Origin: a virus | Virus record (IMG/VR): IMGVR_UViG_3300038321_000021 | Coordinates: 1 to 53,116 of that record | Strand: one strand, 5' to 3' | DNA: 53,116 nt | Shown here: positions 12,530-50,401 of the stretch, piece after piece | Numbering within the stretch: position 1 is the stretch's first letter | Layout: each line of letters opens with the position of its first letter | Made by a program: the position numbers and the translations under genes | Notes under the pieces: model-generated | The model's database searches: none | What the model was told of the DNA's origin: nothing | Seen by the model: the letters and a program-made list of their open reading frames with translations, nothing else

Positions 12530-12553
12530 GTTTTTTCTCCTTTCAAAATATAA

Positions 12554-17842: not shown

Positions 17843-17854
17843 ATTTACCTCCTT

Positions 17855-18769: not shown

Positions 18770-21700
18770 GTAGTACCCACCACCCCTCTCAATGTTGATA
18801 TTTGATTCTTGGTTTGTCTGTAAATTTCAAGTCTGGATAAAGCTTTAGGCGAATAGTTATTCTGTACAAACGATACCTTTGTTTCCTGTGGAGTTTCAGA
18901 CCTGTTGACGCCGTCAGATTCACTAGATGCGGCGAACGTTGGCAGTTTCCTTATTACATCAGCTACATTTATTCCTTTATTCTTGGAGAGTAAATCGTTA
19001 ATGAGTAAACTTCCAGCCTCCACGTCACTGAGATCTAGAACGGGTCTGATGACAGGATCTAAATCCGCATTGTCGTTAATTACATCAGATATTGCCGATA
19101 TGACATTCTTCAAAGTAGATATCGTAGACATCCCCATATCGGCGGCAGATGACATACCAAGATGACTGTACTTCTTCAAACCTTCAGCAAACCCCACCAT
19201 TGACCATCTACCCAATTCGGCAAATTTCTTTGAGGGGGATGCTACTCCTATTGCGTCTCTGGCTGCTTGTAATGCGTCAGTAGCAGTTCGTGCTGCTGCC
19301 TGTGCTAGTTCGGAGGCTTTTGATAAGATGCCCCACTTCATTCCATCGACAATGTCTTGACCGAGTCCCATCCAGTCGGGAGTTCTCATAATGGATACAA
19401 TGTTGTCCGCAAACGTTCTGAAGTCTTTCTCACCTTTCGTCCGCAACTCGCCAATCTTCTTGAGCCAGTCGTTCTTCATATTCTCGATTGTCTTAGCGGT
19501 TTCTTCGGCTAATTGTTTTGTCTTCTCTTCAAATATGAATCTTTGCTCCTCGAGATCTATCCTGGCCTGCGCATTCGCCATTCTTATTTGGTTTGACGTC
19601 TCAATGCGCAAACCCTCAAGCTCTTTAGTAGCAACGGTCCTGGCCTGACTTGATTTTTCTTGCCATAGAGATACATACTCGATCAACTCCGGTTCGGACA
19701 ACTTATTCAAAGCTTTGATTTCAGATAAAGACCTAGGTCCCATCTTTTGTAGTTCGTCTATTAGTGCGGAGTCGACTCCTCTACCGGACAGATTACTCAT
19801 TTGTCTTGTCCAATCGTCGAACTCGTTAACCTGATCTTTTAAGTTCTTAATTAGATCGCTACCAAGCACCTCATCCTTAGGTTCAATCTTGTCAAATAAA
19901 CCGTACGTATCATATAGAGATTTTGTCCGCGATTTGAGGGCCTGATCATATTGAGCGTTAAGATCTCTAATATCTCTCTCAAGTTGATCGTTAATCTGTC
20001 TGCACGCTTCATAGTATTCTTGTTCGTATTGGATTCGTTTATCCATAGCGTCACGACTTACGTCTATAACCCCTTGTGCGAAGTCTGCATCGGCCTGGGC
20101 TATTTCTTTCTTTACGCGATAAACTTCTCGATCCGCTTTCTTACGTTCCTCAGTACCTTCTAAATATCTGGACTGAACGCGCTCCCAAGCATCAAGTTCT
20201 TCATATAAACTTAATTCGCTATAATACTTACGCTCGTCGATCCAGTCCGCAGAAGCGTTAAAGGCGTCCTCAGCAGCTTTCTCGGCTTCTTTTGCGGTTT
20301 TAGCCGCAGCTTTCTCAGCGGCAGTAACAGCCTTCTTAGTCATTTTCTCGGATGACGCTTCAACCTTAGGAGTACCTTTGTCTATACCAATAGCTAAACC
20401 GGCGGCGACGTTATCGCCTATTTCTTTAAATACTTCGGAAGGTGAACGAGTATCTAGTACGCGTTTGGCTGCATCAATAGCAGATGTCGCTAGATCTGTG
20501 ACACCCTCAACCACAGAGGATATCTTCTCTTTTATTCCATTTACGAGGCCCATCACTATCTGTCCACCAATCTCGATGAACTTATCAACAGCCTTTAGTA
20601 ACGTTTTAGCCATGAGAAGAACAATTTTACCTATTAGATTTAGGATCGCATCAACAACCATTTCTCCGTTTCGTTCGACGGCATCAGCGAGACCATAAAG
20701 GAAAGAGATCATCAATTCAAATCCAGCTTGTATGATGGCTCCTAATTTCTTTGTTACGCCGGAGATAAAATCAATAACTATGTCAATACCGGACTGAACG
20801 ACCTCTTTAATATTTGATTTGACGCCCTTAAGGAGGATAAGTACTAGTTCCCCACCGAGCTTCATTATCTTAGGTAGATAGGCCACGAACGATTCAAGGA
20901 GTTTTGTCAATAACGTTAGGGCCCCATCAACGACGACCGGTGTTAATGTGACCATTACATCCATAACGGCTAAGACAACATCCTTAACAGCTTGCGCGAC
21001 CACGGCAGCGCCCGATCCTATTACTCGTGCGAATTCGATAACTCCTTCGGCTAATGTTTTGGCAGCATATGGTATCAACCCTATGAGACTCGTCACGAGC
21101 GCTACTAATGCCACCGTGCCAGCTGTGCCAGCTACAGCTAATGCTGCTAGACCCGTCGATAGTGCTAAAATGCCAGCGCCAATGGCGACGATACCTATTC
21201 CTAATAGTGCGATCGCGGCTGAAAAGCCTAATATTGCGGGAATCGCTGGGGTTAACAAAGTCGTAGCTACGCCTAAAATAGCGAACGTGCCAGCTAAACC
21301 AAGTAGGGCTGCCCCTATCTGGACTAGTGACATGGAACCGATAGTTTTTAATGCGGTGGCCAATAAAGTAATACCCAAAGCGAGAATGACGAAGGACGAT
21401 GAGTCCACAATCGAGCCGGTCTTTGCTAGGGCGACGAAAGCAGCGACGACAAGAACTAGGGAAGCGGCTAACCCTAACAGGCCCCTGCCTAATTCTTCCC
21501 AAGACATGCTAGCGAACGCATCCAAGACAACGGTTAACATCATCATAGCACCAGCAATGTCAAGAAGCGCGAGGGACATAACAAATATGTTTTTAGGCAT
21601 GGCTATAAGGGCAACTGTTATGATAGCAAGAGCGCCACCTAAAGCTATGAGTCCTCTGGCCATCTGTTCCCAAGACATTGCTCCCATTTTGATGATAGCG

Positions 21701-24420: not shown

Positions 24421-24794
24421 AGCTTAGTAACCTCCCTCCATGCTTCATTTACGATTTTGTCAAAAATAGGCTGGATAGCAGGATTGATATAATCTCGCCC
24501 CTGTACCCAGCCGCCATTACGAGTTCCATGTCCATACTGCAGAATGATGGCTATTGGAACTCCATTTTGAATGTTTGAGTTATAAAAAGTAATCTTTGCT
24601 GAACCGTGTTTATTGGTTATCTCATAACGCCACGAACTCGCTGTAAGTCCGGAGTCTACGGGTGTTGCAGACGCAAGAGCGGCTACTCCCTCCCGACCGT
24701 ACTTGTCGAACTCTCCGAGACGAACGGTTTCTTTGGCTTTCTCCAGGAAACGTGTCAATTTAGAGAAGTCACCCTTTTGTCTGAACCTTATCAT
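24417..24794 (-). CDS. HK97 gp10-like head-tail / tail-completion protein
   Basis: Start set to MIRFRQKGDF behind SD AAAAGGAGAA. ATPVDSGLTASSW and ILQYGHGTRNGGWVQGRDYINPA patterns. Confidence 0.5.
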   Translation of the reverse strand: MIRFRQKGDFSKLTRFLEKAKETVRLGEFDKYGREGVAALASATPVDSGLTASSWRYEITNKHGSAKITFYNSNIQNGVPIAIILQYGHGTRNGGWVQGRDYINPAIQPIFDKIVNEAWREVTKL

Positions 24795-24819
24795 GTGGAA
24801 TTCTCCTTTTAGAAAAGCA

Positions 24820-25146
24820 TTAATTAGAAAGCAACGCTGGATTCTTATCCCAGAGAATCTTCGCTTCTTCGAGAGCTTTTTCAATTAACTTTTCAAGAGT
24901 TGCAGTAGAAATGAATAATCGAATAATGGCTGGAATATTAGGATAAACTTTTTCAATGACAGCGGCCAGTTTGAGGTTTCCGGTCCCTCCGCCATATTCT
25001 CTTTCCGCCCAAGTTACTAGAGCGAACAATATTTGATCTAGCACTGTCCACTGTTTTTTAACAATGAGTAAAATGATAAAAGCGATTGCTACAACGACAA
25101 CCGCCACACTATCCCAATTGACTGCTAAGAACTCTAATATTTTCAT
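24820..25146 (-). CDS. Holin-like protein (LL-H-type architecture)
   Basis: N-terminal TM VAVVVVAIAFIILLIV followed by WAEREYGGGTGNLKLAAV. Confidence 0.55.
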   Translation of the reverse strand: MKILEFLAVNWDSVAVVVVAIAFIILLIVKKQWTVLDQILFALVTWAEREYGGGTGNLKLAAVIEKVYPNIPAIIRLFISTATLEKLIEKALEEAKILWDKNPALLSN

Positions 25147-25189
25147 TCTCTCTCCCCTTTATCTGCTTGGAGGCGTTACTGCCCCCTTT

Positions 25190-25501
25190 CTAAATTGCAG
25201 GACTATTATCATTACCCCCGCGATCATCATGATGTTGAAAATTTTTAGCCTTCGCTGATTCAAAGGTTATTCCGCCTTCCTTGTGATCAGACTTCACAAG
25301 GTTAAGATATCCAGTAAGACCGGCGCCAATGATTATCTCGGCTAGACCGACAGCTGCAGTAAGCCATGCTGCCGTAGAAGTGTAATCGTTTTTAATACAG
25401 TAATACATCAGGACGAGAGTCTCCTGTGCGATGACAAAACCAGCAAGCACGACAAGAAGCGTCATTAACTTGCTCCATTCGAACTTTTTTTTGATCTTCA
25501 T
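25190..25501 (-). CDS. Holin-like membrane protein (2-3 TM segments)
   Basis: LMTLLVVLAGFVIAQETLVLMYY, AAWLTAAVGLAEIIIGAGLTGYL, charged C-terminus. Adjacent to the amidase. Confidence 0.6.
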   Translation of the reverse strand: MKIKKKFEWSKLMTLLVVLAGFVIAQETLVLMYYCIKNDYTSTAAWLTAAVGLAEIIIGAGLTGYLNLVKSDHKEGGITFESAKAKNFQHHDDRGGNDNSPAI

Positions 25502-25514
25502 AAGAACAATAACT

Positions 25515-26300
25515 TCATACTTTACCTATGAAATGGGCGAAGCGATGAAGTATAGTTACAAACTGCTCGCGAGTCAGAAGATCCTCCCACATATAATTCG
25601 GATTTCCATCCTCTGCCGTTCCGCCTCCAGCTATCAAACCATTGGTAATGGCCCAAGTTCTAGCGTCGTTACTATATGCATTACTGTCATTGTCTTTCAG
25701 TCTTTTCCGCATTTCCAACCAAAGCTCTTCAAACCTATCAATATTCATATCATTATCCTCCGTATTAATTTTGATATTAAGCCGCTTGTTGACTTCGTCG
25801 CATAGTTGCTGACGTCTATTCCAAATGTACGGCTGGGCACACCCAGTAGCTGAAAAATATCTATGAAAGGTGAGTGAAGCGTTTGGTGTATCGTCGCAAT
25901 AAATACCAGGGCGACCGTTTTTTTGTTTTATTCCGTGATTTCTTCGACACATATCAACACATAATCTCACAAGAACTTCCCAAGCAGCGGACGATACAGT
26001 CCAGTTAGGGCTTCCGCTGTCATTAGCCACTTCGATCGTTAAAGCGGCATTATCGTTTGCCAAGCTGCTACTACACCATGATCGATCTTTTTCCTCCACA
26101 TACATTCCAATTCGTCCATCGGAACCGATGCCATAATTAGATGAGGCGTTTCGCTTTGGTGTTTGAAATACCTGTCCTATAGACTCGACGGTGAGATTAC
26201 CCCCCACATGGTGCGGAGTGATTTTTGTTATTGTCTTATTTCGCGGCGCACTTTTGAACGGAGATATTTTTGTATATACGACCAAAGGGCTATTGCTCAT
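25515..26300 (-). CDS. Endolysin: N-acetylmuramoyl-L-alanine amidase (Amidase_2/PGRP type) with SLH-like C-terminal wall-binding repeat
   Basis: ITPHHVGGN...NASSNYGIGSDGRIGMYVEE...ANDNAALTIEVAN. C-terminal ARTWAITNGLIAGGGT...LLTREQFVTILHRF. Confidence 0.8.
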   Translation of the reverse strand: MSNSPLVVYTKISPFKSAPRNKTITKITPHHVGGNLTVESIGQVFQTPKRNASSNYGIGSDGRIGMYVEEKDRSWCSSSLANDNAALTIEVANDSGSPNWTVSSAAWEVLVRLCVDMCRRNHGIKQKNGRPGIYCDDTPNASLTFHRYFSATGCAQPYIWNRRQQLCDEVNKRLNIKINTEDNDMNIDRFEELWLEMRKRLKDNDSNAYSNDARTWAITNGLIAGGGTAEDGNPNYMWEDLLTREQFVTILHRFAHFIGKV

Positions 26301-26469
26301 CTTTATCTCTCCCATCTCCTCCGGCGCAGAAACTTAGAAAAGTCTCGGCATCCAGTACGTCACCCTCTTCGTCGTAAACTTTTCCGCTTACGGTGTCTAG
26401 TTTTAGTTCGCCCACATAGGGTAAATCGTCGTCGATTTCTCCATTATGGTAACGATAATTAAGGTTCAT
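26290..26469 (-). CDS. Small hypothetical protein (59 aa)
   Basis: Start set to MNLNYRYHNGE behind SD GGAAGGAGAGG. Overlaps the amidase start by 11 nt. Confidence 0.5.
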   Translation of the reverse strand: MNLNYRYHNGEIDDDLPYVGELKLDTVSGKVYDEEGDVLDAETFLSFCAGGDGRDKDEQ

Positions 26470-26521
26470 GATGTTTCCTCTCCTTCCGGTCGGACATCGT
26501 TGTTGTTTTTTTTTCATCACG

Positions 26522-27064
26522 TCACCCTCTCGTGTTCAATTGTTTTCTACGAGCCGCATTCAGGGCATTGTTGCGACTCATTATGTCTTTCTTACTTCTC
26601 TTCTTAGGTGGTTGATTCTTAATATTGCAAACTTTAATTAAAGTAAGAAGACGATTAAGATGCCACTTCTGACACTCAAATGGAATATTCAACGCAATCA
26701 TCCAATAATAAATAATTTCCGCCGTAATTAATTCTCTGTTTGTTTTACTGATTTTTTCATCCGAAAAATAAGTAGCTGTCATCGGAGCTTCTATATATTC
26801 GTTAATCTCAATAATGTTTCTATTAGTCAGATAGTTATATACTTCGGGATCTATGTTTTTCGTAATAGTCATAAATTTTATATAGTCCAAAGTTTCTTCG
26901 AGTGTTTTTTCCTGCTTTGTAAGAAATGCTTTGCACCATTTGGATTCCCATTTTGAAAGAGAGACGAGAGAATGCTCCAGTGACAACGTCTGCTCTTTTG
27001 TGAAGACGAATTCTTGTTTAATTTCATCCCATTGCTCAACAGCCGGTATTGTAATTCGAAGCAT
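26522..27064 (-). CDS. Tail assembly protein (gpT-like position) with its own start
   Basis: 180 aa with SD GGGAGGG. LEHSLVSLSKWESKW...WHLNRLLTLIKV pattern common downstream of siphophage tail chaperones (recollection). Confidence 0.5.
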   Translation of the reverse strand: MLRITIPAVEQWDEIKQEFVFTKEQTLSLEHSLVSLSKWESKWCKAFLTKQEKTLEETLDYIKFMTITKNIDPEVYNYLTNRNIIEINEYIEAPMTATYFSDEKISKTNRELITAEIIYYWMIALNIPFECQKWHLNRLLTLIKVCNIKNQPPKKRSKKDIMSRNNALNAARRKQLNTRG

Positions 27065-27085
27065 TCCTCAACCCTCCCAACATTT

Positions 27086-27484
27086 TTATTGATGTGTAAC
27101 CGGAGCCAATGTCGGCTGAGTAGTCTCTACTACCGGAACAATGCCGTTCACAAACTTAGCTGCTGCATCCGCATCTGTCGCCAGTTCCATAAACAACTGA
27201 GAGTATGCTTCTGTCTGAGAAAAAGCTGTAGAAAGTTCTTCAGACTTGATAAACCTCTTTCCATCCGGAGATTTTTCACCGTAAGCTTTAAGAATGATCT
27301 CTTTGAAAGTCTTAATAATTCTTTCACCGTCCTGTGCAGCAACGATCTTGTTAAGCATTTGGGTCATACCACCAGAAACACCCATCTCCATTTCTAAGAC
27401 CTCTGCCTTAGAAAGATTGAAGTAGAAATCCTCGGTCCTTTTGTTTCCGTCGAAGTCTTCATATGTGATGGTTTTTTTCAACAT
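27086..27484 (-). CDS. Tail assembly chaperone (gpG-like)
   Basis: 132 aa, acidic. FYFNLSKAEVLEMEM motif. Position directly after the major tail protein. Confidence 0.6.
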   Translation of the reverse strand: MLKKTITYEDFDGNKRTEDFYFNLSKAEVLEMEMGVSGGMTQMLNKIVAAQDGERIIKTFKEIILKAYGEKSPDGKRFIKSEELSTAFSQTEAYSQLFMELATDADAAAKFVNGIVPVVETTQPTLAPVTHQ

Positions 27485-37154: not shown

Positions 37155-37351
37155 AATAATTACTGCCTCCTCTCGGTTAAATATTGTATGGTTCTCGTAT
37201 TGTTTCATGGGGGTTACATATAGTTTTGCATAGCATTTAAAAGAACTCACAAAGCCGACTAAAACCTTTTGAAAGGAGAATGAAAGAAATGAAGAAGTCA
37301 ACCTTGTGAGCTCTTTTAAATGCCATGCTGAGTAAACGCTTTCCTAAATAT

Positions 37352-37417
37352 CACCCCCGGGGAATTTTTAATGAGGGCGGCGATGACGGAGGGGGTGCGA
37401 TTTTTGCGACACCCCCC
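37352..37417. other. GC-rich palindromic / hairpin element (cos/pac candidate)
   Basis: CACCCCCGGGG (contains the 8-bp palindrome CCCCGGGG), then GGGCGGCGATGACGGA, then the hairpin GGGGGTGCGatttttGCGACACCCCC. All of this sits in an otherwise AT-rich 484-bp intergenic region upstream of the packaging genes. Confidence 0.35.
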
Positions 37418-37482
37418 TATATGTTCCGTCACCAAGAGCCGCAAACGTCTCGTCTTTGGAAATCTTCTAGAACAATCATTTA

Positions 37483-37690
37483 TTTCTAAAATAATTTCCG
37501 TTTAAACGAATGAAAAATAGTATGCGTTTAGGTACTTGCCGCTTGTCTTGCCGCCTTCTTATAGATGTTTCTAAAATAATTTCCGTTTAAACGAATGATA
37601 AATAGTATGCGTTTAAACGAATGATAAATAGTATGCGTTTAGGTACTTGCCGCTTGTCTTACCACCTTCTTATAGATGTTTCTAAAATCG
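37483..37690. repeat. Tandem duplication (85-bp unit x ~2.3, with a nested 26-bp unit x3)
   Basis: The unit starting TTTCTAAAATAATTTCCGTTTAAACGAATGA recurs at 37483 and 37568, and partially at 37679. The 26-mer GTTTAAACGAATGAWAAATAGTATGC occurs at 37500, 37585 and 37611. Each unit includes a copy of the last ~45 nt of CDS 37639..37890. Confidence 0.85.
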
Positions 37691-37890
37691 TATTTAATAA
37701 TTTCATCAATTGCTCTTTCAACTTCCAAATCGTTTTCTTCTTCTGATAATTGATCTGAAGTTCGAGCAATTCTTCCTAAGTAAGCACAAGAATCATAACC
37801 TTTTTCTACATCGAACAGGAACCAGGAAGTGAACTGTTCAAATGGATCGTAGGGGTTATCAAATGTTGTTAACATACATCTGCTTTTCAT
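37639..37890 (-). CDS. Hypothetical conserved small protein
   Basis: 83 aa. LTTFDNPYDPFEQFTSWFLFD...GY pattern. SD AAAGGAG. Confidence 0.65.
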   Translation of the reverse strand: MKSRCMLTTFDNPYDPFEQFTSWFLFDVEKGYDSCAYLGRIARTSDQLSEEENDLEVERAIDEIIKYDFRNIYKKVVRQAAST

Positions 37891-37897: not shown

Positions 37898-40747
37898 TCA
37901 CTCCTTTCCTTTCAAGTATTTTAATACTGTGGTCGACGATACACCAAGAGCATTGGCTATGTCTTTAGTTGTGTAACCAGAAGCTTTCATAGATGCAATT
38001 CGATTAATCTTAGCTGTGCTCAAAGAATTAGTGGTTCTCGGTGTGGCTCGCTGTCTAAGATCATCTATATCGACGTTATTGAGAATCTGGGTAAGTCTGT
38101 TTTCACTAATAGCACCGGCTTGAATAGCTTCCCATTCACGGTCAGATATTGTAACGGGTAACCTCTTGGCACCGACAATAGCCCGCGCCTTAGTTAACTC
38201 TTGTTGACCGAGTTTCTTTATTTCATTACGAGTTATGTCAGGGTTAGCCTGCTTTTTAGCATTGATGGCGGCATTAGCCATCAACTGGGCCTGTCTCTCA
38301 CGAGGTGCGTTTTTAAGGGCCACGTTAAGCTGGGACATAAGGTGGTCTACTTCTTCTTGATAAACTTTTTTAGCAGAGGAGGAGTACTCTATATTACCAG
38401 CCGTAACCATCTCCTTACGAGCCTGGTTGCCTAGGGCCTTCATCCGGTTGGCATATTCAGCGTAAACTCTTTCTGCCGGGGTGTTAGCGTCGGATACTAG
38501 TGTAAAGGCGTCGTCGGTTTCGGCCATCTTGGTAGATTGCTGTGTTCTAGTTTTTACTTTTCCTGTTTTGTCCACATATGTTTCCGCTGGTTTGTAAACG
38601 TAAGCACTTTTTGGTAAGGTTGGATCATACCAATCTTTATCCGCCTTATTGGCGACTCTATTGTATAGTAGAGCTCCTTCAGGACGAGTTGGATCGTACC
38701 AAGCCTTGTCTTTTGTATTAATTTTTGGACTGCCTGTTACTTTTAGTCTTGGTTCTTGTGATTTAGCTCTCGAGATTAAAGTAGCTGCTCCTTCTCTGTA
38801 TCGACCCTCTTTGTCATAGCTACCTTGATATTTTTTCTTAAGAGACGTTATATTGTTGTCAATCTCACTTTGTTTATAATCCAATTTATGTTTTTCAGCA
38901 TCGATAACCACCATGCTATGACGAACAGCTTTTGCTAATTCGTCTTGAGTGGCTCCTCTTAAAGTCATATCCGTAATTAGATTCGAAGCTTTACCCATTT
39001 CGGTTTGAGTATTACTCATAACCTTAATTTTTTTACCGTGACTATTATAATATTGGTCTCCTTTTTTTACAGTGCCGTAGCTCATTTTTGGGTCAAAATC
39101 ATCCAACCCATGTTTCGGGTCCATTCTAGTAGATGTGATTTTAACTTTACCCCCAGTGGGGATGACCATAACGGTATCACCATCAAAGTCGGCGCCAGAT
39201 AAACGATTAGCAACTTTACTGTTAATTCCGATAGCATCCGCTGGAGTGTTTCCTAAAATCCTCCGAGCTTCTGCTTGTTTATTATTAACGGTTAAGATTG
39301 GAATTTCAAACGTTCCACCATGAGGAAATCGTATCAAAGCAACTTGTTCCCCCGGTTCGAAGTTAGGAGCATAAACTTCGTTGTCTTTCATAGAGGTGAT
39401 AGGAAGTATTACCTGATACCTCTGACGGGGAAGGGCTGCCGCTTGTAGATGAATAGCCGCTGAATCGCAATCATCCGAAAACTTTTTTAACAAAACTTTC
39501 TTCAGCGTCGGATTCGGAAGTGACATAATTTCATCAAACTCTGCTTGTTTGTCGGCCGATGCTAGGTTGAGCTGTTTTTCTATCAAAGTTTTACTCTGTT
39601 TGGAAAGAAACTGAGAGGGAAGATTTTTGCTCCATTCGTCCCAATCGCCTTCTTCGGCTCTTTTATTGATTAAAGATAGTTGACGTTTCCCATCCTTGTC
39701 GATGTAATAACTTTGACCTCCTGCTTTAATTAGAGAACCGAAAGGATTGTCTGGATCTTTTTCAATGTTCTTTAGCACGTCACCTTTAGGAGTTCCTTGT
39801 TTTTTGTTGGTATTAAAAATAGCATCAACTCCATCTGGCATATTATCGGAGTATACAGCCATTCCTTTTATATATTTATTATCATCCACTAGAATACGAA
39901 CTTGTGCGTAGTGGGAGTTTCCTAAAGAAAGATCATCTACTCCTCTTCGAATCTCGACTACGCCATCTTTGTCATTTCCGCCTTCTTCCGCATAACGAAT
40001 CTTAATACGATTAGAATCCATACTCTTCGGATAGACAAAGGTATCAAAAGTGTCACCACCATCATGGGAAATATAATCTCGAAGAGAATGCACATTTTCG
40101 AGATTATAGATTTCTTTATGCTCGGTTCCCGGAGGACAGAGAACTTGGATATTAGTTTGTTTTCCGGGGTTTGTAACTTGGGGAACGCCGCCGCCATATA
40201 GTTCGTAACCCTCCATCTCTAAAATATAAAGAGCTTGTTTCATTTTTTCTCTAGAAATATTACCCAGCTCTCGTTCAACACCAACGCCAACATCGATCAT
40301 TCCTTTAGTGTCTACTTGTTCTTTGAGAAAATCGGCTACTTTTTTAGCTTGGTTCATACGGGCTTCGGAATTCTCATTTAACAAAGAGCGTACAGACGAA
40401 TCATTTTTATAACCCATCTTTTCAGCAATCTCATTCAGACTGTATCCTTTTTCTCGCAAACCTTTTGCAGTGTCAACTTGTAGCGACCTTCGCTCTGCGT
40501 TTGCTAAACTCACTTGTGTCCTAAATTGAGTCGAATCCAATCCCATAGATTTAGCAATTGCCATGTCGCCTTTCCAGGTCTTGCCGTCGTCATCTGTAAA
40601 AGTGAAGTTTTCTTTTCGAAGTTCATCCACACGACTCAAAAAATCACCGCTACGTTGAAAAGGGTTTTCGCCAGAACCCCAAGGATAACGCCCAGAACGT
40701 TTTGGCATACCATAATGTTTTAAAATATCTTCAGCAATGGGATTCAT
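37898..40747 (-). CDS. Single-polypeptide two-barrel DNA-dependent RNA polymerase (YonO-like) with N- and C-terminal HTH-like segments
   Basis: Beta-like barrel motif KYIKGMAVYSDNMPDGVDAIFNTN (aa 291-314). Beta-prime-like VALIRFPHGGTFEIPILTV...AIGINSKVANRLSGADFDGDTVMVIP (aa 468-530; ADFDGD codons at 39176..39193). HTH-like GYSLNEIAEKMGYKNDSSVRSLL and GYTTKDIANALGVSSTTVLKYLKG. Confidence 0.75.
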   Translation of the reverse strand: MNPIAEDILKHYGMPKRSGRYPWGSGENPFQRSGDFLSRVDELRKENFTFTDDDGKTWKGDMAIAKSMGLDSTQFRTQVSLANAERRSLQVDTAKGLREKGYSLNEIAEKMGYKNDSSVRSLLNENSEARMNQAKKVADFLKEQVDTKGMIDVGVGVERELGNISREKMKQALYILEMEGYELYGGGVPQVTNPGKQTNIQVLCPPGTEHKEIYNLENVHSLRDYISHDGGDTFDTFVYPKSMDSNRIKIRYAEEGGNDKDGVVEIRRGVDDLSLGNSHYAQVRILVDDNKYIKGMAVYSDNMPDGVDAIFNTNKKQGTPKGDVLKNIEKDPDNPFGSLIKAGGQSYYIDKDGKRQLSLINKRAEEGDWDEWSKNLPSQFLSKQSKTLIEKQLNLASADKQAEFDEIMSLPNPTLKKVLLKKFSDDCDSAAIHLQAAALPRQRYQVILPITSMKDNEVYAPNFEPGEQVALIRFPHGGTFEIPILTVNNKQAEARRILGNTPADAIGINSKVANRLSGADFDGDTVMVIPTGGKVKITSTRMDPKHGLDDFDPKMSYGTVKKGDQYYNSHGKKIKVMSNTQTEMGKASNLITDMTLRGATQDELAKAVRHSMVVIDAEKHKLDYKQSEIDNNITSLKKKYQGSYDKEGRYREGAATLISRAKSQEPRLKVTGSPKINTKDKAWYDPTRPEGALLYNRVANKADKDWYDPTLPKSAYVYKPAETYVDKTGKVKTRTQQSTKMAETDDAFTLVSDANTPAERVYAEYANRMKALGNQARKEMVTAGNIEYSSSAKKVYQEEVDHLMSQLNVALKNAPRERQAQLMANAAINAKKQANPDITRNEIKKLGQQELTKARAIVGAKRLPVTISDREWEAIQAGAISENRLTQILNNVDIDDLRQRATPRTTNSLSTAKINRIASMKASGYTTKDIANALGVSSTTVLKYLKGKE

Positions 40748-41585: not shown

Positions 41586-41656
41586 AAGTAGGCCTCCTTT
41601 CCTGTTTTTAGACAAACGAAAAAGAAAAAGTAAACGCCGGTCGCGTTTTATTCTTC

Positions 41657-41687
41657 TCTCTTCATAAAAGGGCATGTTTTTTTCGCG
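41657..41687 (-). promoter_or_regulatory. Promoter-like motif, divergent instance
   Basis: Minus strand CGCGAAAAAAACATGCCCTTTTATGAAGAGA closely resembles the 9637..9667 instance. Lies upstream of the nuclease genes. Confidence 0.4.
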
Positions 41688-41737
41688 TGGCTGTGATTGA
41701 GCAAAAAAAATGTGAAAATATACTGTTTTTACACTCG

Positions 41738-42067
41738 TGGCCAAATGCCCACTTATTTTGGCCATATCTATATATATCCTTAATCTTTTTATCACAGTTA
41801 ATAGAGAATAAAAGTGGGCAAGTGGGCTTTTCGTCCGAATAATTTTTCAAATCGGAGCAAATCGCCCAAAAACACCCAAAAAACGCCCAAAAAGGGCCGT
41901 TTTGAGAAAATGGACCCAAAATAAAAAGCCCACTTTCGTTTTTAAAAGTGGGCTTTTAGCCCACTTATTTGGCCAAAAAACCAAAAAATCGTCCGAACAC
42001 TCTCCAAAAATCAGCCCAATTTTTCACAAAACTCAAAAAGCCCACTTTGCAAAAATTAAAAGTGGGC
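41738..42067. promoter_or_regulatory. Iteron / operator array: 8 copies of GCCCACTT (both orientations) plus phased A-tracts
   Basis: GCCCACTT at 41747, 41928, 41959 and 42040. AAGTGGGC at 41812, 41820 (tandem), 41946 and 42060. Two pairs form hairpin-capable inverted repeats. CGCCCAAAAA / CACCCAAAAAA / CGCCCAAAAA repeat at 41861..41895. Confidence 0.7.
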
Positions 42068-42080: not shown

Positions 42081-42118
42081 ATTTTTAAAGGTTTACGGAC
42101 GAAATTTGCAAAAAGAAA

Positions 42119-42136
42119 GAGTCCTTGTTAGGACTC
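42119..42136 (-). terminator. Cassette hairpin plus T-run
   Basis: Minus strand GAGTCCTAACAAGGACTCTTTCTTTTT. Contains the stop of 42128..42415. Confidence 0.6.
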
Positions 42137-42415
42137 CTTCCATTCTTTTAATAACATTCTCATAATCTCTTTTACGGATTCTGATTGTTCGCTACGTTCT
42201 ATTAATCGATTTATATGAGCGTAATAGTCATCGGCTTGTTCCATATTACCAATTCGTCCCTCGATCATACTCACGGTCGATTCGCGAATTATTCCTAAAT
42301 CGCTCCGTTTCATGTCACGAGCTATATGATATTGGCCTATGTTTAGTAATGCCCTTATTGCTTTCATATAACTTCGATTAATTTCAGCTTGAGTTCTAAA
42401 AATCTCAAATCCCAT
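42128..42415 (-). CDS. Small hypothetical protein (95 aa)
   Basis: Start set to MGFEIFRTQAEINR behind SD AAAGGAGGAATTAATT. Ends ...EWKES with the stop in the hairpin. Confidence 0.6.
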   Translation of the reverse strand: MGFEIFRTQAEINRSYMKAIRALLNIGQYHIARDMKRSDLGIIRESTVSMIEGRIGNMEQADDYYAHINRLIERSEQSESVKEIMRMLLKEWKES

Positions 42416-42438: not shown

Positions 42439-42469
42439 GTTTCCATAACAGGAGGTGTATGTTTAGCGC
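42439..42469 (-). promoter_or_regulatory. Promoter-like motif, class A
   Basis: Minus strand GCGCTAAACATACACCTCCTGTTATGGAAAC. Confidence 0.5.
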
Positions 42470-42477
42470 AAAAAGAA

Positions 42478-42494
42478 GAGGGGATGAACCCCTC
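42478..42494 (-). terminator. Cassette-position hairpin, different stem sequence
   Basis: Minus strand GAGGGGTTCATCCCCTC followed by TTCTTTTT. Confidence 0.5.
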
Positions 42495-42638
42495 ATTTTG
42501 ATATCCATATGACTGATGTTAAATCATCCATTATATCAATTTGATAAGTATCTCCTCTATCTTCTAAAAATTTGGTTGCTATTTCCTTCGTTGCAAAAGG
42601 TACTTCCATTCCATCTTTAAAAAATGCTCCATAGCTTT

Positions 42639-42827
42639 CTAAAATTGCACTAAAATTGCACGGTCTTTTGAATCATCCATTAAATAGTTTTTCATTATTT
42701 TTTCCAAGGTATTACTCTTTAATTTTTTATTAAGTAATACTGCCGTTGTTAAAATAACAATAGAACCTCCAACAGATAACACAATAATTTTATGCTCCTC
42801 ATAAAACTTTTTTACTTTTTTAAACAT
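42639..42827 (-). CDS. Small membrane protein (62 aa)
   Basis: TM IIVLSVGGSIVILTTAVLL. SD GAAAGGAGAAAAATC. Confidence 0.6.
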   Translation of the reverse strand: MFKKVKKFYEEHKIIVLSVGGSIVILTTAVLLNKKLKSNTLEKIMKNYLMDDSKDRAILVQF

Positions 42828-42851
42828 GATTTTTCTCCTTTCAAAAATATA

Positions 42852-42881
42852 GTTTCCATAATAGAGTATGTTATTATTGCG
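42852..42881 (-). promoter_or_regulatory. Promoter-like motif, class A (degenerate)
   Basis: Minus strand CGCAATAATAACATACTCTATTATGGAAAC. Confidence 0.4.
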
Positions 42882-42908
42882 TAAAAAATCACATAAAAAT
42901 AAAAGAAA

Positions 42909-42927
42909 GAGCCCTTGTTAGAGGCTC
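42909..42927 (-). terminator. Cassette hairpin variant plus T-run
   Basis: Minus strand GAGCCTCTAACAAGGGCTCTTTCTTTT. Confidence 0.5.
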
Positions 42928-42934
42928 AATCTTT

Positions 42935-43147
42935 TTACGGTTTGTTTTGATATTTTTTTACTAAAGCTTCGATATCATTATCTTTTTTACTTTGTTCGAT
43001 ATCAAGCTTATGTTTTGCAGCATCAACGACTATCCTACTATGACGGATTGATCTACTCATTTCTTCCTTTGTCGCGCCTCTTGATATCATATCTGTAATC
43101 AGATTGGAAATTTCGTCTATCTCTTTTGTACTTTTCACACTATTCAT
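42935..43147 (-). CDS. Small protein paralogous to RNAP residues ~586-643
   Basis: Start set to MNSVKSTKE behind SD GAAAGGAGAAAAGAAA. ISNLITDMISRGATKEEMSRSIRHSRIVVDAAKHKLDIEQSKKDNDIEALVKKYQ aligns with ASNLITDMTLRGATQDELAKAVRHSMVVIDAEKHKLDYKQSEIDNNITSLKKKYQ. Confidence 0.65.
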   Translation of the reverse strand: MNSVKSTKEIDEISNLITDMISRGATKEEMSRSIRHSRIVVDAAKHKLDIEQSKKDNDIEALVKKYQNKP

Positions 43148-43179
43148 TTTCTTTTCTCCTTTCAAAATATAAAAAGAAA

Positions 43180-43197
43180 GAGTCCTTGTTCGGACTC
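43180..43197 (-). terminator. Cassette hairpin plus T-run
   Basis: Minus strand GAGTCCGAACAAGGACTCTTTCTTTTT. Overlaps the TGA of 43196..43393. Confidence 0.6.
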
Positions 43198-43393
43198 AAA
43201 TTCTTTTACCATTATTAAATTTAGATTTGATTTTTTCAACAATCATTTCTCGATTACTGACAATATAACTTCCACCTATCAGAACCGCATAAACTGCCAC
43301 ATTAAGGATAATAATTTCCTTTCTATGTATTTTATTAAATTCTTTTCTAGGTTCCTTTACCATTGTTTTATAATCCTGAAACATTTCTTTCAT
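43196..43393 (-). CDS. Small membrane protein (65 aa)
   Basis: TM IIILNVAVYAVLIGGSYIV. SD AAAGGAGGAAATGAAAA. Confidence 0.6.
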   Translation of the reverse strand: MKEMFQDYKTMVKEPRKEFNKIHRKEIIILNVAVYAVLIGGSYIVSNREMIVEKIKSKFNNGKRI

Positions 43394-43408
43394 TTTTCAT
43401 TTCCTCCT

Positions 43409-43438
43409 TTTAATAGTGGTTTCCATAATAGGAGGTGT
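43409..43438 (-). promoter_or_regulatory. Promoter-like motif, class A (consensus instance)
   Basis: Minus strand CGCGAAAATTACACCTCCTATTATGGAAAC, directly after hairpin 43459..43477. Confidence 0.5.
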
Positions 43439-43458
43439 AATTTTCGCGTAAAAAGAAA

Positions 43459-43477
43459 GAGCCCTTGTTTAGGACTC
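43459..43477 (-). terminator. Cassette hairpin plus T-run
   Basis: Minus strand GAGTCCTAAACAAGGGCTCTTTCTTTTT. Contains the stop of 43469..43753. Confidence 0.6.
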
Positions 43478-43753
43478 CTCCTTTTTTGTTTTAATACTTT
43501 TTTTAATAAGTAAAAAACTAATAACAGCGATTACTCCCGAAATGCAACCAACTGTAAGATATTTGTTTTTAGTAAAATTAGATCCTGTTTGGTAATCCAA
43601 CGACACGACCTCGATTAAATTATCTCTAGCTGTACCAACTATTTTAGTACCATCTAAATTTTTACAATCGAAATCCACCGCTGCCTCCGCTAGTTCTCTA
43701 AACTTACTGCCATCCAAGTTGCTTGCAAATTTTCTAAATTTTTTCTCTGTCAT
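43469..43753 (-). CDS. Small protein with C-terminal TM anchor (94 aa)
   Basis: Start set to MTEKKFRKF behind SD GAAAGGAGAAAATGAG. TM VGCISGVIAVISFLLI. Ends ...KKEES with the stop in the hairpin. Confidence 0.6.
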   Translation of the reverse strand: MTEKKFRKFASNLDGSKFRELAEAAVDFDCKNLDGTKIVGTARDNLIEVVSLDYQTGSNFTKNKYLTVGCISGVIAVISFLLIKKSIKTKKEES

Positions 43754-43778
43754 CTCATTTTCTCCTTTCAAAAATATA

Positions 43779-43808
43779 GTTTCCATAACAGGAGGTGTAA
43801 TGTTAGCG
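43779..43808 (-). promoter_or_regulatory. Promoter-like motif, class A
   Basis: Minus strand CGCTAACATTACACCTCCTGTTATGGAAAC. Confidence 0.5.
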
Positions 43809-43868
43809 TATACATAAATATAACCCACGATTGTTATCCAAAAGCGGGTTATAAATATGTACTTATCG

Positions 43869-43991
43869 TTAACTATTATTTCTTAGATACCTAATCAGTA
43901 TCCAGATGAGCCATAGTCCGCCGGTTAACATAACTAGAATAAAATCTAGAAGTATACCAAATATACTACGCTTTTTCGTTCCTCTACTCAT
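43869..43991 (-). CDS. Small membrane protein (40 aa) translationally coupled to nrdD, not in supplied track
   Basis: ATGA overlap with the nrdD stop. MSRGTKKRSIFGILLDFILVMLTGGLWLIWILIRYLRNNS. Confidence 0.5.
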   Translation of the reverse strand: MSRGTKKRSIFGILLDFILVMLTGGLWLIWILIRYLRNNS

Positions 43992-46039
43992 AATTTTACC
44001 TCCTTATTTACGAATTTGTAAATCTCACTAACACCTACAAATCTCTCGTCAATATTTTTAATCCTGTTTCTAACAATGAGGGTAGGGGCTTGTATGATTT
44101 TGAGACTTGCTACAAGTTCTGGTTTGTCTTCTGCTAAAATTTTTACAAAATTGATTCCTGCGTTATTTAAAATCTTTTCAGCCTGGATACAATTAGGGCA
44201 AGTTTTTGTGCCAAATAAAGTAATGTCGTTGCGACAAGAAGCATCCATATCTATACGAGAAGTCGTATACACCTGTCGGTCTTTAAACTCCTGTACTTTT
44301 CCGTCATTCCAATTTTGGACCGGTCGATAATAACCAGTGATGCGACTGTAAATTTCTGTCTTCTCACCACAATCCGGACACAGGTCAACCTCCCCATTCA
44401 AATATCCGTGGTTCTTACAAATAGAGTAAGTGGGGGAGAGGGTGTAATAAGGAAGTTTATAGTTTTCAGCGATTTTACGAACTAGATTAGCAGCGGCTTT
44501 CCAATCTGGAAGCTTCTCACCAAGGAAGGCATGGAACACGGTGCCGGATGTGTATAGGGTCTGAAGTTCATCCTGGATATCAAGTGCTGAGAAAACATCA
44601 TCAGTGTAACCGACAGGAAGATGAGTGGAGTTGGTATAATAAGGAGTTCCGTTCTCGTTAGCAGTGATGATATCAGGATATTGCTTCTTATCGGACCTCG
44701 CAAAGCGATATGCGGTAGACTCAGCAGGGGTAGCCTCCAGATTATAAAGATCGCCATAGAGTTCCTGATAGTCGCTAAGTCGTTCCCTCATATGATTAAG
44801 AACCTCTTTTGCAAACTTTTGAACCCCCGGAGTAGACAAATCTTTGTGTAGCCACTTGGCATTTAGACCAGCTTCGTTCATACCCACGAGACCAATAGTA
44901 GAGAAGTGGTTATCAAACGTCCCTAAATATTGCTTAGTGTAAGGATAGAGTCCGGCATTCAGAAGCTTAGTGATAAATGTTCGTTTAATTTTGAGAGAGC
45001 GAGCCGAAATATCCATTAATTTATCTAACTTAGAATAGAAATCCTTTTCGTCCGAAGCCAGATAAGCGATTCTCGGCAAGTTAATAGTAACTACACCAAC
45101 TGAACCAGTGGACTCACCAGAGCCAAAGAATCCGCCAGACTTTTTGCGTAGCTCCCGCAGGTCAAGTCTAAGACGACAACACATGGACCGCACATCGTTG
45201 GGCTCCATATCTGAATTAACATAGTTTGAGAAATATGGAGTACCGTACTTAGCCGTCATTTCAAATAGGAGTTTATTGTTTTCTGTTTCACTCCAGTTAA
45301 AATCCTTCGTGATTGAGTAGGTGGGGATAGGGTATTGGAATCCGCGTCCGTGGGCATCCCCTTCGATCATGATCTCAATGAAGGCTTTATTAACCATGTC
45401 CATTTCCTTCTGACAATCGCCATAGGTGAAATCCATCTCCTTTCCGCCAACAATAGCAGGGAGGTTGGCCAGGTCGTTTGGAACTGTCCAGTCCAGAGTA
45501 ATATTACAGAAAGGTGCCTGCGTCCCCCAACGTGATGGAGTGTTAAGGCCAAACACGAAGGACTGTACACATTGCTTGATTTCTTTTTGGGTTAAGTTAT
45601 CCACTTTAACAAACGGTGCTAGGTATGTGTCAAAGGATGAAAATGCCTGAGCTCCCGCCCATTCGTTCTGCATAATGCCGATAAAGTTAACCATCTGATT
45701 ACAGAGCGTTGATAAATGACTTGCAGGAGTTGAAGTAATTTTACCAGCTACACCACCAAGTCCTTCTTGAATAAGCTGCTTCAAGCTCCAACCAGCACAA
45801 TAACCTGTTAACATAGACAAATCGTGCAAATGAATTGCAGCGCATTGATGTGCAATGGCAATTTCTCGGTCGTAAACATTCGACAACCAATAGTTAGCAG
45901 TTACAGCTCCGGAATTAGAGAGAATAAGACCCCCAACCGAGTAGCTCACTGTAGAATTCTCTTTTACACGCCAGTCGTTAACATGTATGTAGTCGTCGAC
46001 TAGCTCTTTATAGTTTAAAATATATTCATCATTTCTCAT
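43988..46039 (-). CDS. nrdD: Anaerobic ribonucleoside-triphosphate reductase (class III) fused to a C-terminal glutaredoxin/NrdH-like domain
   Basis: Zn site CKNHGYLNGEVDLCPDCG. Glycyl-radical motif SRITGYYRPV. Then ~90 extra residues with ITLFGTKTCPNCIQAEKIL...APTLIV (thioredoxin fold, CxxC). Confidence 0.9.
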   Translation of the reverse strand: MRNDEYILNYKELVDDYIHVNDWRVKENSTVSYSVGGLILSNSGAVTANYWLSNVYDREIAIAHQCAAIHLHDLSMLTGYCAGWSLKQLIQEGLGGVAGKITSTPASHLSTLCNQMVNFIGIMQNEWAGAQAFSSFDTYLAPFVKVDNLTQKEIKQCVQSFVFGLNTPSRWGTQAPFCNITLDWTVPNDLANLPAIVGGKEMDFTYGDCQKEMDMVNKAFIEIMIEGDAHGRGFQYPIPTYSITKDFNWSETENNKLLFEMTAKYGTPYFSNYVNSDMEPNDVRSMCCRLRLDLRELRKKSGGFFGSGESTGSVGVVTINLPRIAYLASDEKDFYSKLDKLMDISARSLKIKRTFITKLLNAGLYPYTKQYLGTFDNHFSTIGLVGMNEAGLNAKWLHKDLSTPGVQKFAKEVLNHMRERLSDYQELYGDLYNLEATPAESTAYRFARSDKKQYPDIITANENGTPYYTNSTHLPVGYTDDVFSALDIQDELQTLYTSGTVFHAFLGEKLPDWKAAANLVRKIAENYKLPYYTLSPTYSICKNHGYLNGEVDLCPDCGEKTEIYSRITGYYRPVQNWNDGKVQEFKDRQVYTTSRIDMDASCRNDITLFGTKTCPNCIQAEKILNNAGINFVKILAEDKPELVASLKIIQAPTLIVRNRIKNIDERFVGVSEIYKFVNKEVKL

Positions 46040-46088
46040 ATTGAGTTAATGTTCCTTTCCATGTATATATTTTTTTTAGAAAAAGAAA

Positions 46089-46107
46089 GAGCCCTTGTTC
46101 AGGACTC
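46089..46107 (-). terminator. Cassette hairpin plus T-run
   Basis: Minus strand GAGTCCTGAACAAGGGCTCTTTCTTTTT. Contains the TGA stop of 46099..46263. Confidence 0.6.
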
Positions 46108-46263
46108 CTCTTTTAATTGTTTAAGATTTTTGTTCATCCTCCTATAAAAATTGTAGTTACTAATGAGTATATCTCCTAAATCTTTAATGTACGTCACAGC
46201 CTTAATTACCAGATAAAATGGTAAATAAACCAAACCTACCATAAAATATAAGAAATTTTTCAT
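46099..46263 (-). CDS. Small membrane protein (54 aa), not in supplied track
   Basis: MKNFLYFMVGLVYLPFYLVIKAV...LKQLKEES. SD AAAGGAGGATTTTACA. Confidence 0.55.
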   Translation of the reverse strand: MKNFLYFMVGLVYLPFYLVIKAVTYIKDLGDILISNYNFYRRMNKNLKQLKEES

Positions 46264-46289
46264 TGTAAAATCCTCCTTTAATATTATGG

Positions 46290-46319
46290 GTTTCCATAAT
46301 AGGAGGTGTAATTTTCGCG
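46290..46319 (-). promoter_or_regulatory. Promoter-like motif, class A (consensus instance)
   Basis: Minus strand CGCGAAAATTACACCTCCTATTATGGAAAC. Confidence 0.5.
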
Positions 46320-49431: not shown

Positions 49432-50106
49432 TCATATTTTCCGTTCCTTTCTTTCGTTGTACTCAGTTTCATCGATTTCATCCCAACCGTCCTTAGCGTC
49501 TTTGAAAAACCTATTAATCTCTATTTTTTCGCCATCAGGTTTAACTGCGTAAAATATACCCATTGTGTCAAAGTCGCCGTTCTTTTTATCAGTCAGAAAG
49601 TCTTCGCAATAAACAGCGATAGGTTTTCCGGCAGGATGATAAGGCATCGTAATCGGAAACATCTCATCGATGATTTTCGTTACCAGCCCCGAGCTAAAGG
49701 TATAATAGGGATTATTAATATCAATTCCGTAACATCTATCGATGTCTTTATATGTTACCGTCCCGTCAGAATAAACATATTTAAATAACGAACCCATTCT
49801 TGTACATTGATACGATGTGTATTTATCATTACCATCTCCAAAACGAGAAAGATTGCTCCAAACATCGTCTGTATCTTCAATGGGGGTTAACGGTTTACCA
49901 TCAATGAGTCTATTTAAAATATGTTTAGTCGACCCAATACTAAAGCCACTATGACTGTCACCCATAAGACTCTTAAAGGCTTTTAGAGCACTATCATAAC
50001 AGGCACAGCCATAATCCCAATCCTCATCGTTTTTTACACCAGAAGCTTCTCGTTCACGTTTACAAGCAATCTCAATTTCTTTTTCGGCCCAAGTTTGCAT
50101 ACTCAT
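49432..50106 (-). CDS. Hypothetical conserved phage protein (224 aa)
   Basis: Start set to MSMQTWAEKE behind SD GAAAGGAGAAAAAATA. The track N-terminus reads through the cassette hairpin. Confidence 0.65.
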   Translation of the reverse strand: MSMQTWAEKEIEIACKREREASGVKNDEDWDYGCACYDSALKAFKSLMGDSHSGFSIGSTKHILNRLIDGKPLTPIEDTDDVWSNLSRFGDGNDKYTSYQCTRMGSLFKYVYSDGTVTYKDIDRCYGIDINNPYYTFSSGLVTKIIDEMFPITMPYHPAGKPIAVYCEDFLTDKKNGDFDTMGIFYAVKPDGEKIEINRFFKDAKDGWDEIDETEYNERKERKI

Positions 50107-50137
50107 TATTTTTTCTCCTTTCAAATATAAAAAGAAA

Positions 50138-50155
50138 GAGCCCTTGTTAGGACTC
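50138..50155 (-). terminator. Cassette hairpin plus T-run
   Basis: Minus strand GAGTCCTAACAAGGGCTCTTTCTTTTT. Contains the stop of 50147..50368. Confidence 0.6.
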
Positions 50156-50368
50156 AGTCTCTTTTCGTAATTTGATGCCATGCTTTAAGTCTTCTAAAAG
50201 CACACTTGTTAATTCATACATCGCATCATTGAGATGACCAACATACTCAATTCCGTTTGGGTCTAAAGCCTCCCAAACAGCTACGTCGTTAATCCTTTCC
50301 TCAACTTTAGTAATTTTATAAATCGCCAGTGCTACTTTCTTTCGCTCGCCTTTTGTCATATTTATCAA
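50147..50368 (-). CDS. Small hypothetical protein (73 aa)
   Basis: SD GAAAGGAGATTGATAAAT. Ends ...RKETES with the stop in the hairpin. Confidence 0.6.
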   Translation of the reverse strand: MINMTKGERKKVALAIYKITKVEERINDVAVWEALDPNGIEYVGHLNDAMYELTSVLLEDLKHGIKLRKETES

Positions 50369-50373: not shown

Positions 50374-50401
50374 TTTCATAATATGAGGTGTTTTTTTCGC
50401 G
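50374..50401 (-). promoter_or_regulatory. Promoter-like motif, class B
   Basis: Minus strand CGCGAAAAAAACACCTCATATTATGAAA, immediately after the helicase stop. Confidence 0.4.

Follow-up and report, generated by a model that had tools for sequence, protein, structure and literature searches.

A recurrent intergenic motif conserved with a putative YonO-like RNA polymerase gene as a candidate promoter class in phages of Firmicutes and Actinobacteria

The IMG/VR virus record IMGVR_UViG_3300038321_000021, analysed here over its whole length of 53,116 bp (the window), carries on its minus strand a recurrent motif of 25–30 bases and, on the same strand, a gene for a 949-residue protein of a putative YonO-like RNA polymerase family. 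This motif is real and strongly non-random, and phages of two bacterial phyla, Firmicutes and Actinobacteria, have kept it along with the polymerase gene. It probably represents a promoter class that is read by the phage's own 949-residue polymerase; that it is a promoter, where exactly transcription starts, and which enzyme reads it are inferred from sequence comparison.

The consensus of the motif is ttaCGCGAAAAttACACctCCTaTTATGgaaa and its core skeleton is CGC-N7-ACA-N7-TTATG. When at most one mismatch to the core was allowed, 12 sites were obtained on the minus strand of the window against 0.81 expected by chance, namely 9643–9667, 11696–11720, 12657–12681, 12887–12911, 13621–13645, 41663–41687, 42444–42468, 42857–42881, 43424–43448, 43784–43808, 46295–46319, and 50377–50401 (copies are named below by the first coordinate), while two near-matches on the plus strand are unrelated. 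The same set had been listed in the first-pass annotation, all 12 instances of which exist on the minus strand; one of its coordinates, 43409–43438, is 10 nt off and should be 43419–43448. The 30-mer CGCGAAAATTACACCTCCTATTATGGAAAC, searched with up to three mismatches, is found on the minus strand twice exactly and once with 3 mismatches, with 0 expected. A weight matrix made from 56 unique motif copies gave a bimodal distribution of scores in the window with 12 sites at 27–48 bits and no score of 3 bits or more on the plus strand; a weak and doubtful 13th candidate (14198–14228, minus strand) reached 9.8 bits. All 12 copies lie within or border gaps between minus-strand open reading frames (ORFs), and such gaps make up no more than about 13% of the window according to a rough ORF map.

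The association with the polymerase gene was followed in 74 IMG/VR loci, which were fetched through the 949-residue protein (37–86% identity) and are consequently all polymerase-bearing. The exact core occurs in these loci 80 times on the polymerase strand and not once on the other, with 0.25 expected from shuffles. Variants of the motif are present in cultured phages as well, co-oriented with the genes and just before gene starts: gaCGCGAAAAAtaCAgcctCCTTTATGGAAg in the Faecalibacterium phage FP_oengus (12 copies on the gene strand, 0 on the other), ttCGCGTAAATTACAtgGGCTATAATGgaga in the Arthrobacter phage Circum (6 and 0), tCGCAAgtTTTACAtgCcTTATAGTGAGACCCCTAC, also given as CGCAAGTTTTACAtgCcTTATAGTG, in the Streptomyces phage Scap1 with its 61% GC genome (6 copies), and TTTAAGTTTTACATACCCTATAATGA, also given as TTTAAGTTTTACATACCCTATAATG, in the Lactococcus phage P092 (9-10 copies). 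The L064 clade has 2 copies of the form TTTACAC-N5-TCTTATGAGAG (TTTACAC-N5-TCTTATG). BLAST with the Circum consensus returned 5–9 intergenic places in each cluster AM Arthrobacter phage and also matched some AU phages (in a zone at 28–30 kb), Qui-like phages, and Gordonia phages. The motifs reported in a Microbacterium phage paper belong to other clusters and were set aside.

The skeleton common to all variants is (TT)TACA-N7-T(T/A)(A/G)TG, with the 3′ end T(T/A)ATG in most lineages and TAGTG in Scap1, and the upstream CGCG block is retained down to approximately 44% polymerase identity and replaced in P092 and the L064 clade. Among the non-structural proteins shared by the window and the four cultured relatives the polymerase is the sole one with a DNA-binding domain, and Pfam and PHROGs scans of 37 ORFs found no phage sigma factor or other conserved transcription factor.

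The putative single-subunit two-barrel RNA polymerase is encoded at 37898–40747 on the minus strand and contains the segment SGADFDGDTVMV with DFDGD at residues 520–524. In an alignment of 10 homologues with 36–59% identity to the window protein LSGADFDGD, including D520-F-D-G-D524, is invariant, and the first-pass view of this protein as an RNA polymerase agrees with the presence of this catalytic signature. A full-length match to phrog_4291 was obtained at E = 0, where the family name “RNA-dependent RNA polymerase” is an annotation, and the Pfam RdRP match over the catalytic loop is sub-threshold (E 1.3e-3, 18 bits versus a cut-off of 23.8). Helix-turn-helix (HTH) domains flank this region, HTH_3 at the N-terminus (residues 98–143) and HTH_7/HTH_38 of the resolvase/sigma region 4/LuxR type at the C-terminus (909–946), and the C-terminal HTH of homologues has precomputed matches to Sigma70_r4_2, Sigma70_r4, and GerE. 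Searches of the PDB with the protein and with the family profile gave only HTH matches and a β′ match at E = 1.6.

Homologues at 35–55% identity are found in at least 250 GenBank phage records, from phages of Arthrobacter, Gordonia, Streptomyces, Rhodococcus, Microbacterium, Lactococcus, and Faecalibacterium, and in thousands of metagenomic proteins; most of them are annotated as helix-turn-helix DNA-binding protein, and no near-identical DNA to the window was found among GenBank phages. An earlier study described the protein as a putative polymerase of the YonO type and its gene as a signature of this phage supercluster, an assignment behind which stands an HHpred value of 95.7%, with no promoter described (bioRxiv 10.1101/842583). 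Searches of the accessible literature returned no paper or preprint describing a promoter for this family, no report of a member transcribing from the motif independently of the host polymerase, and no virion proteomics on the family. A stand-alone paralogue of polymerase residues ~584–641 is encoded by a 70-residue ORF at 42935–43147 (minus strand), which matches phrog_4291 positions 568–632 (E 3.5e-23) and has tblastn matches within the polymerase gene in each of four relatives; a role as a decoy or as a regulator of the enzyme is possible.

The foremost competing explanation is that the host sigma-A holoenzyme uses the hexamer TATTAT/TATAAT as a −10-only promoter, while the upstream block is the site of a phage activator or repressor, possibly of the 949-residue protein itself acting through its HTHs as a transcription factor. 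This is considered unlikely. In its favour, many lineages have TATTAT, TATAAT, or TATAGT as the hexamer, TTTACG stands 16 nt upstream in a few copies of the window (9/12), the HTHs are the sole database-significant domains of the protein, and the question of how the first polymerase is made would disappear. The first-pass annotation had itself proposed TATTAT as a possible −10 and had pointed out that a consistent TTGACA-like −35 is missing at 16–18 nt. The second statement is correct: the bases at this distance are unconserved and give at best TTTACG in 4 copies, and sigma-70-type matches in the window are unenriched (54 found versus 51.8 expected and 47 versus 50.1, none above 10/12).

The first statement does not fit the comparative data. 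Position 2 of the hexamer is the counterpart of the essential A(−11). Of 91 copies, 38 have A at this position, 49 have T, and 4 have G, so T or G stands there in 53, and all 12 FP_oengus copies read CTTTAT with T at this position; a −10-like combination of A at position 2 and T at position 6 is found only in some lineages (Circum and P092). Moreover, the Shine-Dalgarno sequence can follow immediately, with GAAAGGAG directly after TTAT in five independent copies. In the short-form copies a start 7 nt past the hexamer would leave the Shine-Dalgarno sequence out of the transcript. In FP_oengus (positions 2908–3006) a motif copy abuts a tRNA-like gene, which ARAGORN places at 2935–3006 with an odd anticodon loop and which begins 1 nt past the G of TTATG, so that a sigma-A-type start would fall inside the gene. 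Further arguments against the host enzyme are that the skeleton is kept in Streptomyces, Arthrobacter, Lactococcus, and Faecalibacterium phages, whose hosts differ in promoter usage, and that a protein which does no more than bind DNA would hardly be expected to have the invariant DFDGD together with a 45% identical core of ~700 residues. Judged from these comparisons, the geometry of the motif is incompatible with TATTAT as a sigma-A −10. A different assignment, in which TTACAC/TTTACA is read as the −35 and the −10 is placed 17 nt downstream, was also tried and rejected, since that downstream hexamer is unconserved across lineages and in short-form copies would fall past the Shine-Dalgarno sequence.

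In return, the same features indicate where a phage-specific start would be. The Shine-Dalgarno adjacency, the beginning of the tRNA-like gene, and the beginning of the leader hairpin behind the copy at 41663, which is located exactly at the G of TTATG and is so in divergent relatives too, all point to transcription starting at or next to the G of T(T/A)ATG. The five bases from this G follow G-R-A-R-A across 65 unique copies with no more than 10 exceptions per position.

The placement of the individual copies is consistent with a promoter function, but not with the uniform distance of 10–25 nt to the Shine-Dalgarno sequence that had been assumed: this distance extends from 0–2 nt (50377, 12887, and 11696) to leaders of ~78 nt (41663) and ~125 nt (12657). 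The short-form copy at 50377, CGCGAAAAAAACACCTCATATTATG, continues directly into AAAGGAG and a 70-residue ORF; in the other two short forms the Shine-Dalgarno sequence directly after TTATG is AAAGGAG (12887) or AAAGGAGG (11696). The copies at 46295 and 43424 represent the exact consensus, and the former is followed by a 54-residue ORF, a terminator, and nrdD. At 43784 a hairpin with a T-rich tail precedes the motif and a 94-residue ORF follows it; the copy at 42857 reads CGCAATAATAACATACTCTATTATG; the copy at 13621 ends in TTTTATG; and the copy at 9643, with TTAATG as its single mismatch, stands before a 79-residue ORF and the downstream replication/lysis-side genes. The long leader of copy 12657 leads to a DUF6353 gene. 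The initial division of the copies into classes A and B is better replaced by a class of 11 mRNA sites and a single positionally conserved variant, the class-2 copy CGCGAAAAAAACATGCCCTTTTATG at 41663, which is the last motif ahead of the run of nuclease, polymerase, and structural genes.

Among the genes of these units is an anti-defence gene, the ORF at 49432–50181 of the first motif-driven unit, which has a Pfam match to Tad3, an inhibitor of type I Thoeris (E 1e-29). DUF6353 has three paralogues in the window (6898–7860, 9678–10472, and 11729–12529), which are kept in all four cultured relatives, and two of the three are directly behind motif copies.

Hairpins were at first thought to precede most instances of the motif and were compared with the promoter hairpins of phage N4. 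They are found directly before only 5 of the 12 copies (42444, 42857, 43424, 43784, and 12657), at a variable distance of 0–20 nt, are followed by a T-run, and close the upstream ORF. The copy at 43424 abuts the terminator at 43450–43478, those at 42444 and 12657 are fused to the terminators at 42478–42494 and 12692–12709, respectively, and 20 nt separate the copy at 42857 from its terminator. In N4 the promoter recognized by the virion RNA polymerase is itself a small hairpin at a fixed position, and the only likeness to it is a phage polymerase with hairpins nearby. The hairpins of the window are therefore predicted to be terminators and not N4-type promoter hairpins, and an N4-like hairpin promoter was rejected, as no small fixed-position hairpin forming a promoter exists here.

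The terminators are conserved in sequence themselves. The one at 43450–43478 (minus strand) consists of GGAGTCCTAAACAAGGGCTC and a T-run and has sister terminators on the minus strand at 50138–50155, 46086–46110, 43180–43197, 42909–42927, ~42110–42138, 13950–13968, 12692–12709, 12553–12574, and ~11495–11529; the sequence common to them is GAGTCC-TAACAAG-GGCTC with a T-run. The loop C(C/T)TAACA(A/C)GG occurs on the coding strand only, in the window (5 strict copies and variants), in Scap1 (3), and in Circum (3), the corresponding regions of two relatives being 23369–27200 of locus L077 and 17314–20112 of locus L078. Its presence in all three phages argues for a lineage-specific transcription machinery and suggests that the hairpins are cognate, sequence-specific terminators of the phage polymerase. 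Some of them would be leaky, because no motif is found between the terminator at 50138–50155 and the next ORF.

Another role has also been proposed for such repeats. In AU Arthrobacter phages a 32-bp intergenic “boundary” repeat located at 28–30 kb was read as a recombination substrate, with translocations and deletions between such repeats (bioRxiv 10.1101/2020.01.10.891226). The AU phages encode a homologue of the polymerase and have their motif matches in the same 28–30 kb zone, and the AU repeat is probably the same element as the motif, being matched by zone and polymerase gene and not base by base. In the window, too, the small-ORF cassettes at 42.1–43.8 kb are each flanked by a terminator and a motif. 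It might thus be proposed that the repeats merely shuffle small gene cassettes and have no direct role in transcription, a possibility which we rate as very improbable. It leaves unexplained the single orientation of the motif, its fixed place before Shine-Dalgarno sites and the tRNA-like gene, the purine-only sequence downstream, the positionally conserved copy before the polymerase operon, and the fact that CGC, ACA, and TWATG are kept down to 36–45% polymerase identity while the bases between them drift. Besides, cassette shuffling is expected as a by-product of any repeated promoter.

It is similarly improbable, to a degree that makes it a marginal explanation, that the motif acts as RNA in read-through transcripts, either as an anti-Shine-Dalgarno translational switch or as an RNA processing site. 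This idea originates from the class-1 copies, which contain CACCUCCU / CACCTCCT, identical to the 3′ end of 16S rRNA; pairing with the downstream AGGAGG is predicted in 4 of 6 window copies, three of them with z of −2.4 to −4.7. However, the class-2 copies lack CCTCC, as do the variants of Circum, Scap1, P092, and L064, all of which keep CGC/TTTACA and TWATG, and little RNA would cross the five copies that directly follow terminators. There was also no Rfam match in a scan of the whole window, and the CCUCC-GGAGG pairing fits better as a secondary feature which silences read-through transcripts. The 16S-like element is found in the copies 43424–43448, 46295–46319, 42444–42468, and 43784–43808, where it is predicted to pair in read-through RNA with the AGGAGG of the leader downstream; if this pairing forms, translation would be limited to transcripts that originate from the start site of the motif itself.

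The class-2 copy differs from the rest in its position, which is kept in relatives ~930 nt upstream of the polymerase ORF and before the endonuclease-exonuclease-polymerase operon. Of the 10 relatives with long flanks, 9 have no motif over the 10 kb that follow the polymerase gene, which makes this copy the last motif before the structural genes. Its leader hairpin, GAAGAGAGAAGAAUAAAACGCGACCGGCGUUUACUUUUUCUUUUUCG (41617–41663, minus strand), comprises 47 nt with a folding energy of −16.2 kcal/mol (z = −3.2) and is built of a purine arm and a pyrimidine arm; the inner stem is variable, while 15 relatives keep the outer stem, in which only 2 pairs covary. It would be either a terminator-like attenuator or a 5′ stabiliser. 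Approximately 30 nt upstream of the class-2 copy there is a weak sigma-A-like candidate, TTGGCC-N16-TATATT (41717–41744, minus strand; 9/12), which has the counterpart TTGACC-N16/17-TATTTT in ~12 close relatives and may be the entry point of the host polymerase from which the phage polymerase is first expressed.

The non-coding region upstream of the class-2 copy (41690–42000, minus strand) contains several AAGTGGGC / GCCCACTT boxes and a strong terminator (41924–41957), and at the equivalent place of the distant relative L064 (8381–8430) TTTTGCCCAC is repeated four times in tandem; these boxes and repeats could be regulator sites or an origin. At the other end of the operon, after the polymerase and a conserved 83-residue ORF, a non-coding region of ~480 nt within 37155–37700 holds a 26-nt tandem repeat (37584–37641), a longer direct repeat, and a GC-rich block. 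This is probably a packaging/terminus region, because the genome ends of the actinophage relatives fall at the same position. The relatives measure 57–62 kb, compared with 53,116 bp for the window. Close homologues occur in bins of metagenome-assembled genomes labelled Bacteroidales/Fermentimonas/Dysgonamonadaceae and Ruminococcus; these labels conflict with each other, and the strong AGGAGG Shine-Dalgarno sequence found on every gene of the window is at odds with them.

On the favoured reading, in which the phage polymerase reads the motif, transcription would proceed as follows. The fused HTH domains would dock on the upstream CGCG-A-rich/TTTACA block, at about −24 to −12, after which the A/T-rich T(A/T)TTAT stretch would be opened and RNA synthesis would begin at or next to the G of T(T/A)ATG, into the purine-only start G-R-A-R-A. 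The small-gene cassettes would then represent separate promoter-terminator units, many of them closed by the cognate conserved hairpin terminator, while the class-2 copy with its structured leader would drive the endonuclease-exonuclease-polymerase operon and, probably via read-through, the structural genes. As the polymerase operon is placed behind its own motif, positive feedback would result.

Several points weigh against this reading. The polymerase gene itself is behind the motif, which creates a bootstrapping problem, and many of the motif-driven genes look “early”; the first polymerase must consequently come by another route, which may be injection of the enzyme or expression from a host promoter, for example the weak TTGGCC-N16-TATATT (41744–41717). 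The hexamer is a perfect TATAAT in Circum, P092, and locus L058, and use of host sigma-A is possible there. YonO of SPbeta, the only relative that has been studied, transcribes late genes from a single start, and here the motif is mostly found before non-structural genes. Finally, the AlphaFold2 model of the 949-residue protein, built on a 24-sequence alignment, is poor (predicted local distance difference test score 62, predicted template modelling score 0.39), and Foldseek comparison of that poor model with the PDB gave nothing significant, the best matches being RNA polymerase largest subunits at E 0.2–1. Taken as a whole, the proposal of a phage-polymerase promoter made in the first-pass annotation has gained from the catalytic signature, the co-occurrence of motif and gene on one strand, and the non-sigma-A geometry, and has lost its N4 precedent and the TATTAT −10.

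The closest functional parallels are found among phage-encoded two-barrel polymerases whose promoter element abuts or overlaps the start instead of having a −10/−35 arrangement. The non-virion polymerase of phiKZ was shown experimentally to start at the G of TATG (PMC4666361), and the late promoters of the AR9 non-virion polymerase have the form A-11ACA-8-N6-U-A/G+1 (PMC5449584); the window motif likewise ends in T(T/A)ATG, with an invariant ACA upstream and a probable start at G. The differences are that the phiKZ and AR9 enzymes are multi-subunit and their motifs comprise 4–12 nt, whereas here a single chain with fused HTHs would recognize a motif reaching to approximately −24 with a CGCG/A-rich block; AR9, moreover, reads the template strand and needs uracil, and its ACA is 7 nt from the start versus 11 nt here.

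YonO of SPbeta, the promoter of which was stated as unknown (PMC5467207), shares with the window protein the DxDGD signature and a gene position immediately before an exonuclease and the structural/late module. A non-coding RNA comes after its start, comparable to the structured leader behind the class-2 copy, and TCATTTATGAGGGT inside the published primer-extension primer interval (at about position 60438 of the SPBc2 record) resembles the 3′ end of the motif. In contrast, YonO is too distant for BLAST, with SPbeta absent from the matches to the window protein, fused HTH domains are unreported for it, and it drives one late operon from one start. The window weight matrix found no match over SPbeta. 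The YonO start (B. subtilis coordinate 2225998) could be bracketed there by the published primers only, as a 34-mer scan gave no match. In the yonN-yonK gap of SPbeta (NC_001884, locus L079) two copies of TCATTTATGA(A/G)GGT (10434–10447 and 10591–10604) are present on the minus strand within a 24-nt repeat; one of them is inside the primer-bracketed interval, and they resemble the 3′ end of the motif and the TATG of phiKZ. It is possible that this element is the YonO promoter; the 14-mer repeat is not significant at up to two mismatches.

The P23-45 system of Thermus, with polymerase-specific promoters and a conserved 26-nt terminator motif, is similar in that gp96/gp64 include a single-chain two-barrel enzyme, as is predicted for the window protein, promoters were assigned partly by co-occurrence, and terminators are conserved; the polymerase families, motifs, and host are different, and chromatin immunoprecipitation sequencing and Cappable-seq were used there, compared with comparative genomics alone here. 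T7, T3, and SP6 also have long (~23 nt), highly conserved, asymmetric motifs extending up to the start and placed before many genes, with purine-rich initial transcripts and phage-specific terminators, but their right-hand single-subunit enzymes are unrelated to two-barrel polymerases and the similarity in promoter sequence is only A/T richness.

YonO and other single-chain two-barrel polymerases are taken as models of what the ancestor of all cellular RNA polymerases may have been like, and how they find promoters is openly stated to be unknown (PMC5467207). The explanation that fits the motif best is, with reasonable confidence, a new class of promoters belonging to an uncharacterised family of phage polymerases, and the candidate promoter, the predicted start base, and the candidate terminators make promoter recognition testable in cultured phages. 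A wider reading, offered tentatively and as a whole more doubtful than probable, is that of a self-contained sigma-independent system, which would consist of a single chain with built-in HTHs (one of them sigma-region-4-like), a bipartite promoter of CGCG/TTTACA and T(T/A)ATG with G as +1, and terminators with the TAACAAG loop, would have moved intact between Actinobacteria and Firmicutes phages, and would have its TATG-type initiator as an ancestral trait in common with the phiKZ polymerase and possibly YonO. If the promoter reading is true, the “recombination boundary sequence” of actinobacteriophages would be re-annotated as a promoter, and the motif and its polymerase would represent a compact orthogonal expression system working across Gram-positive phyla.

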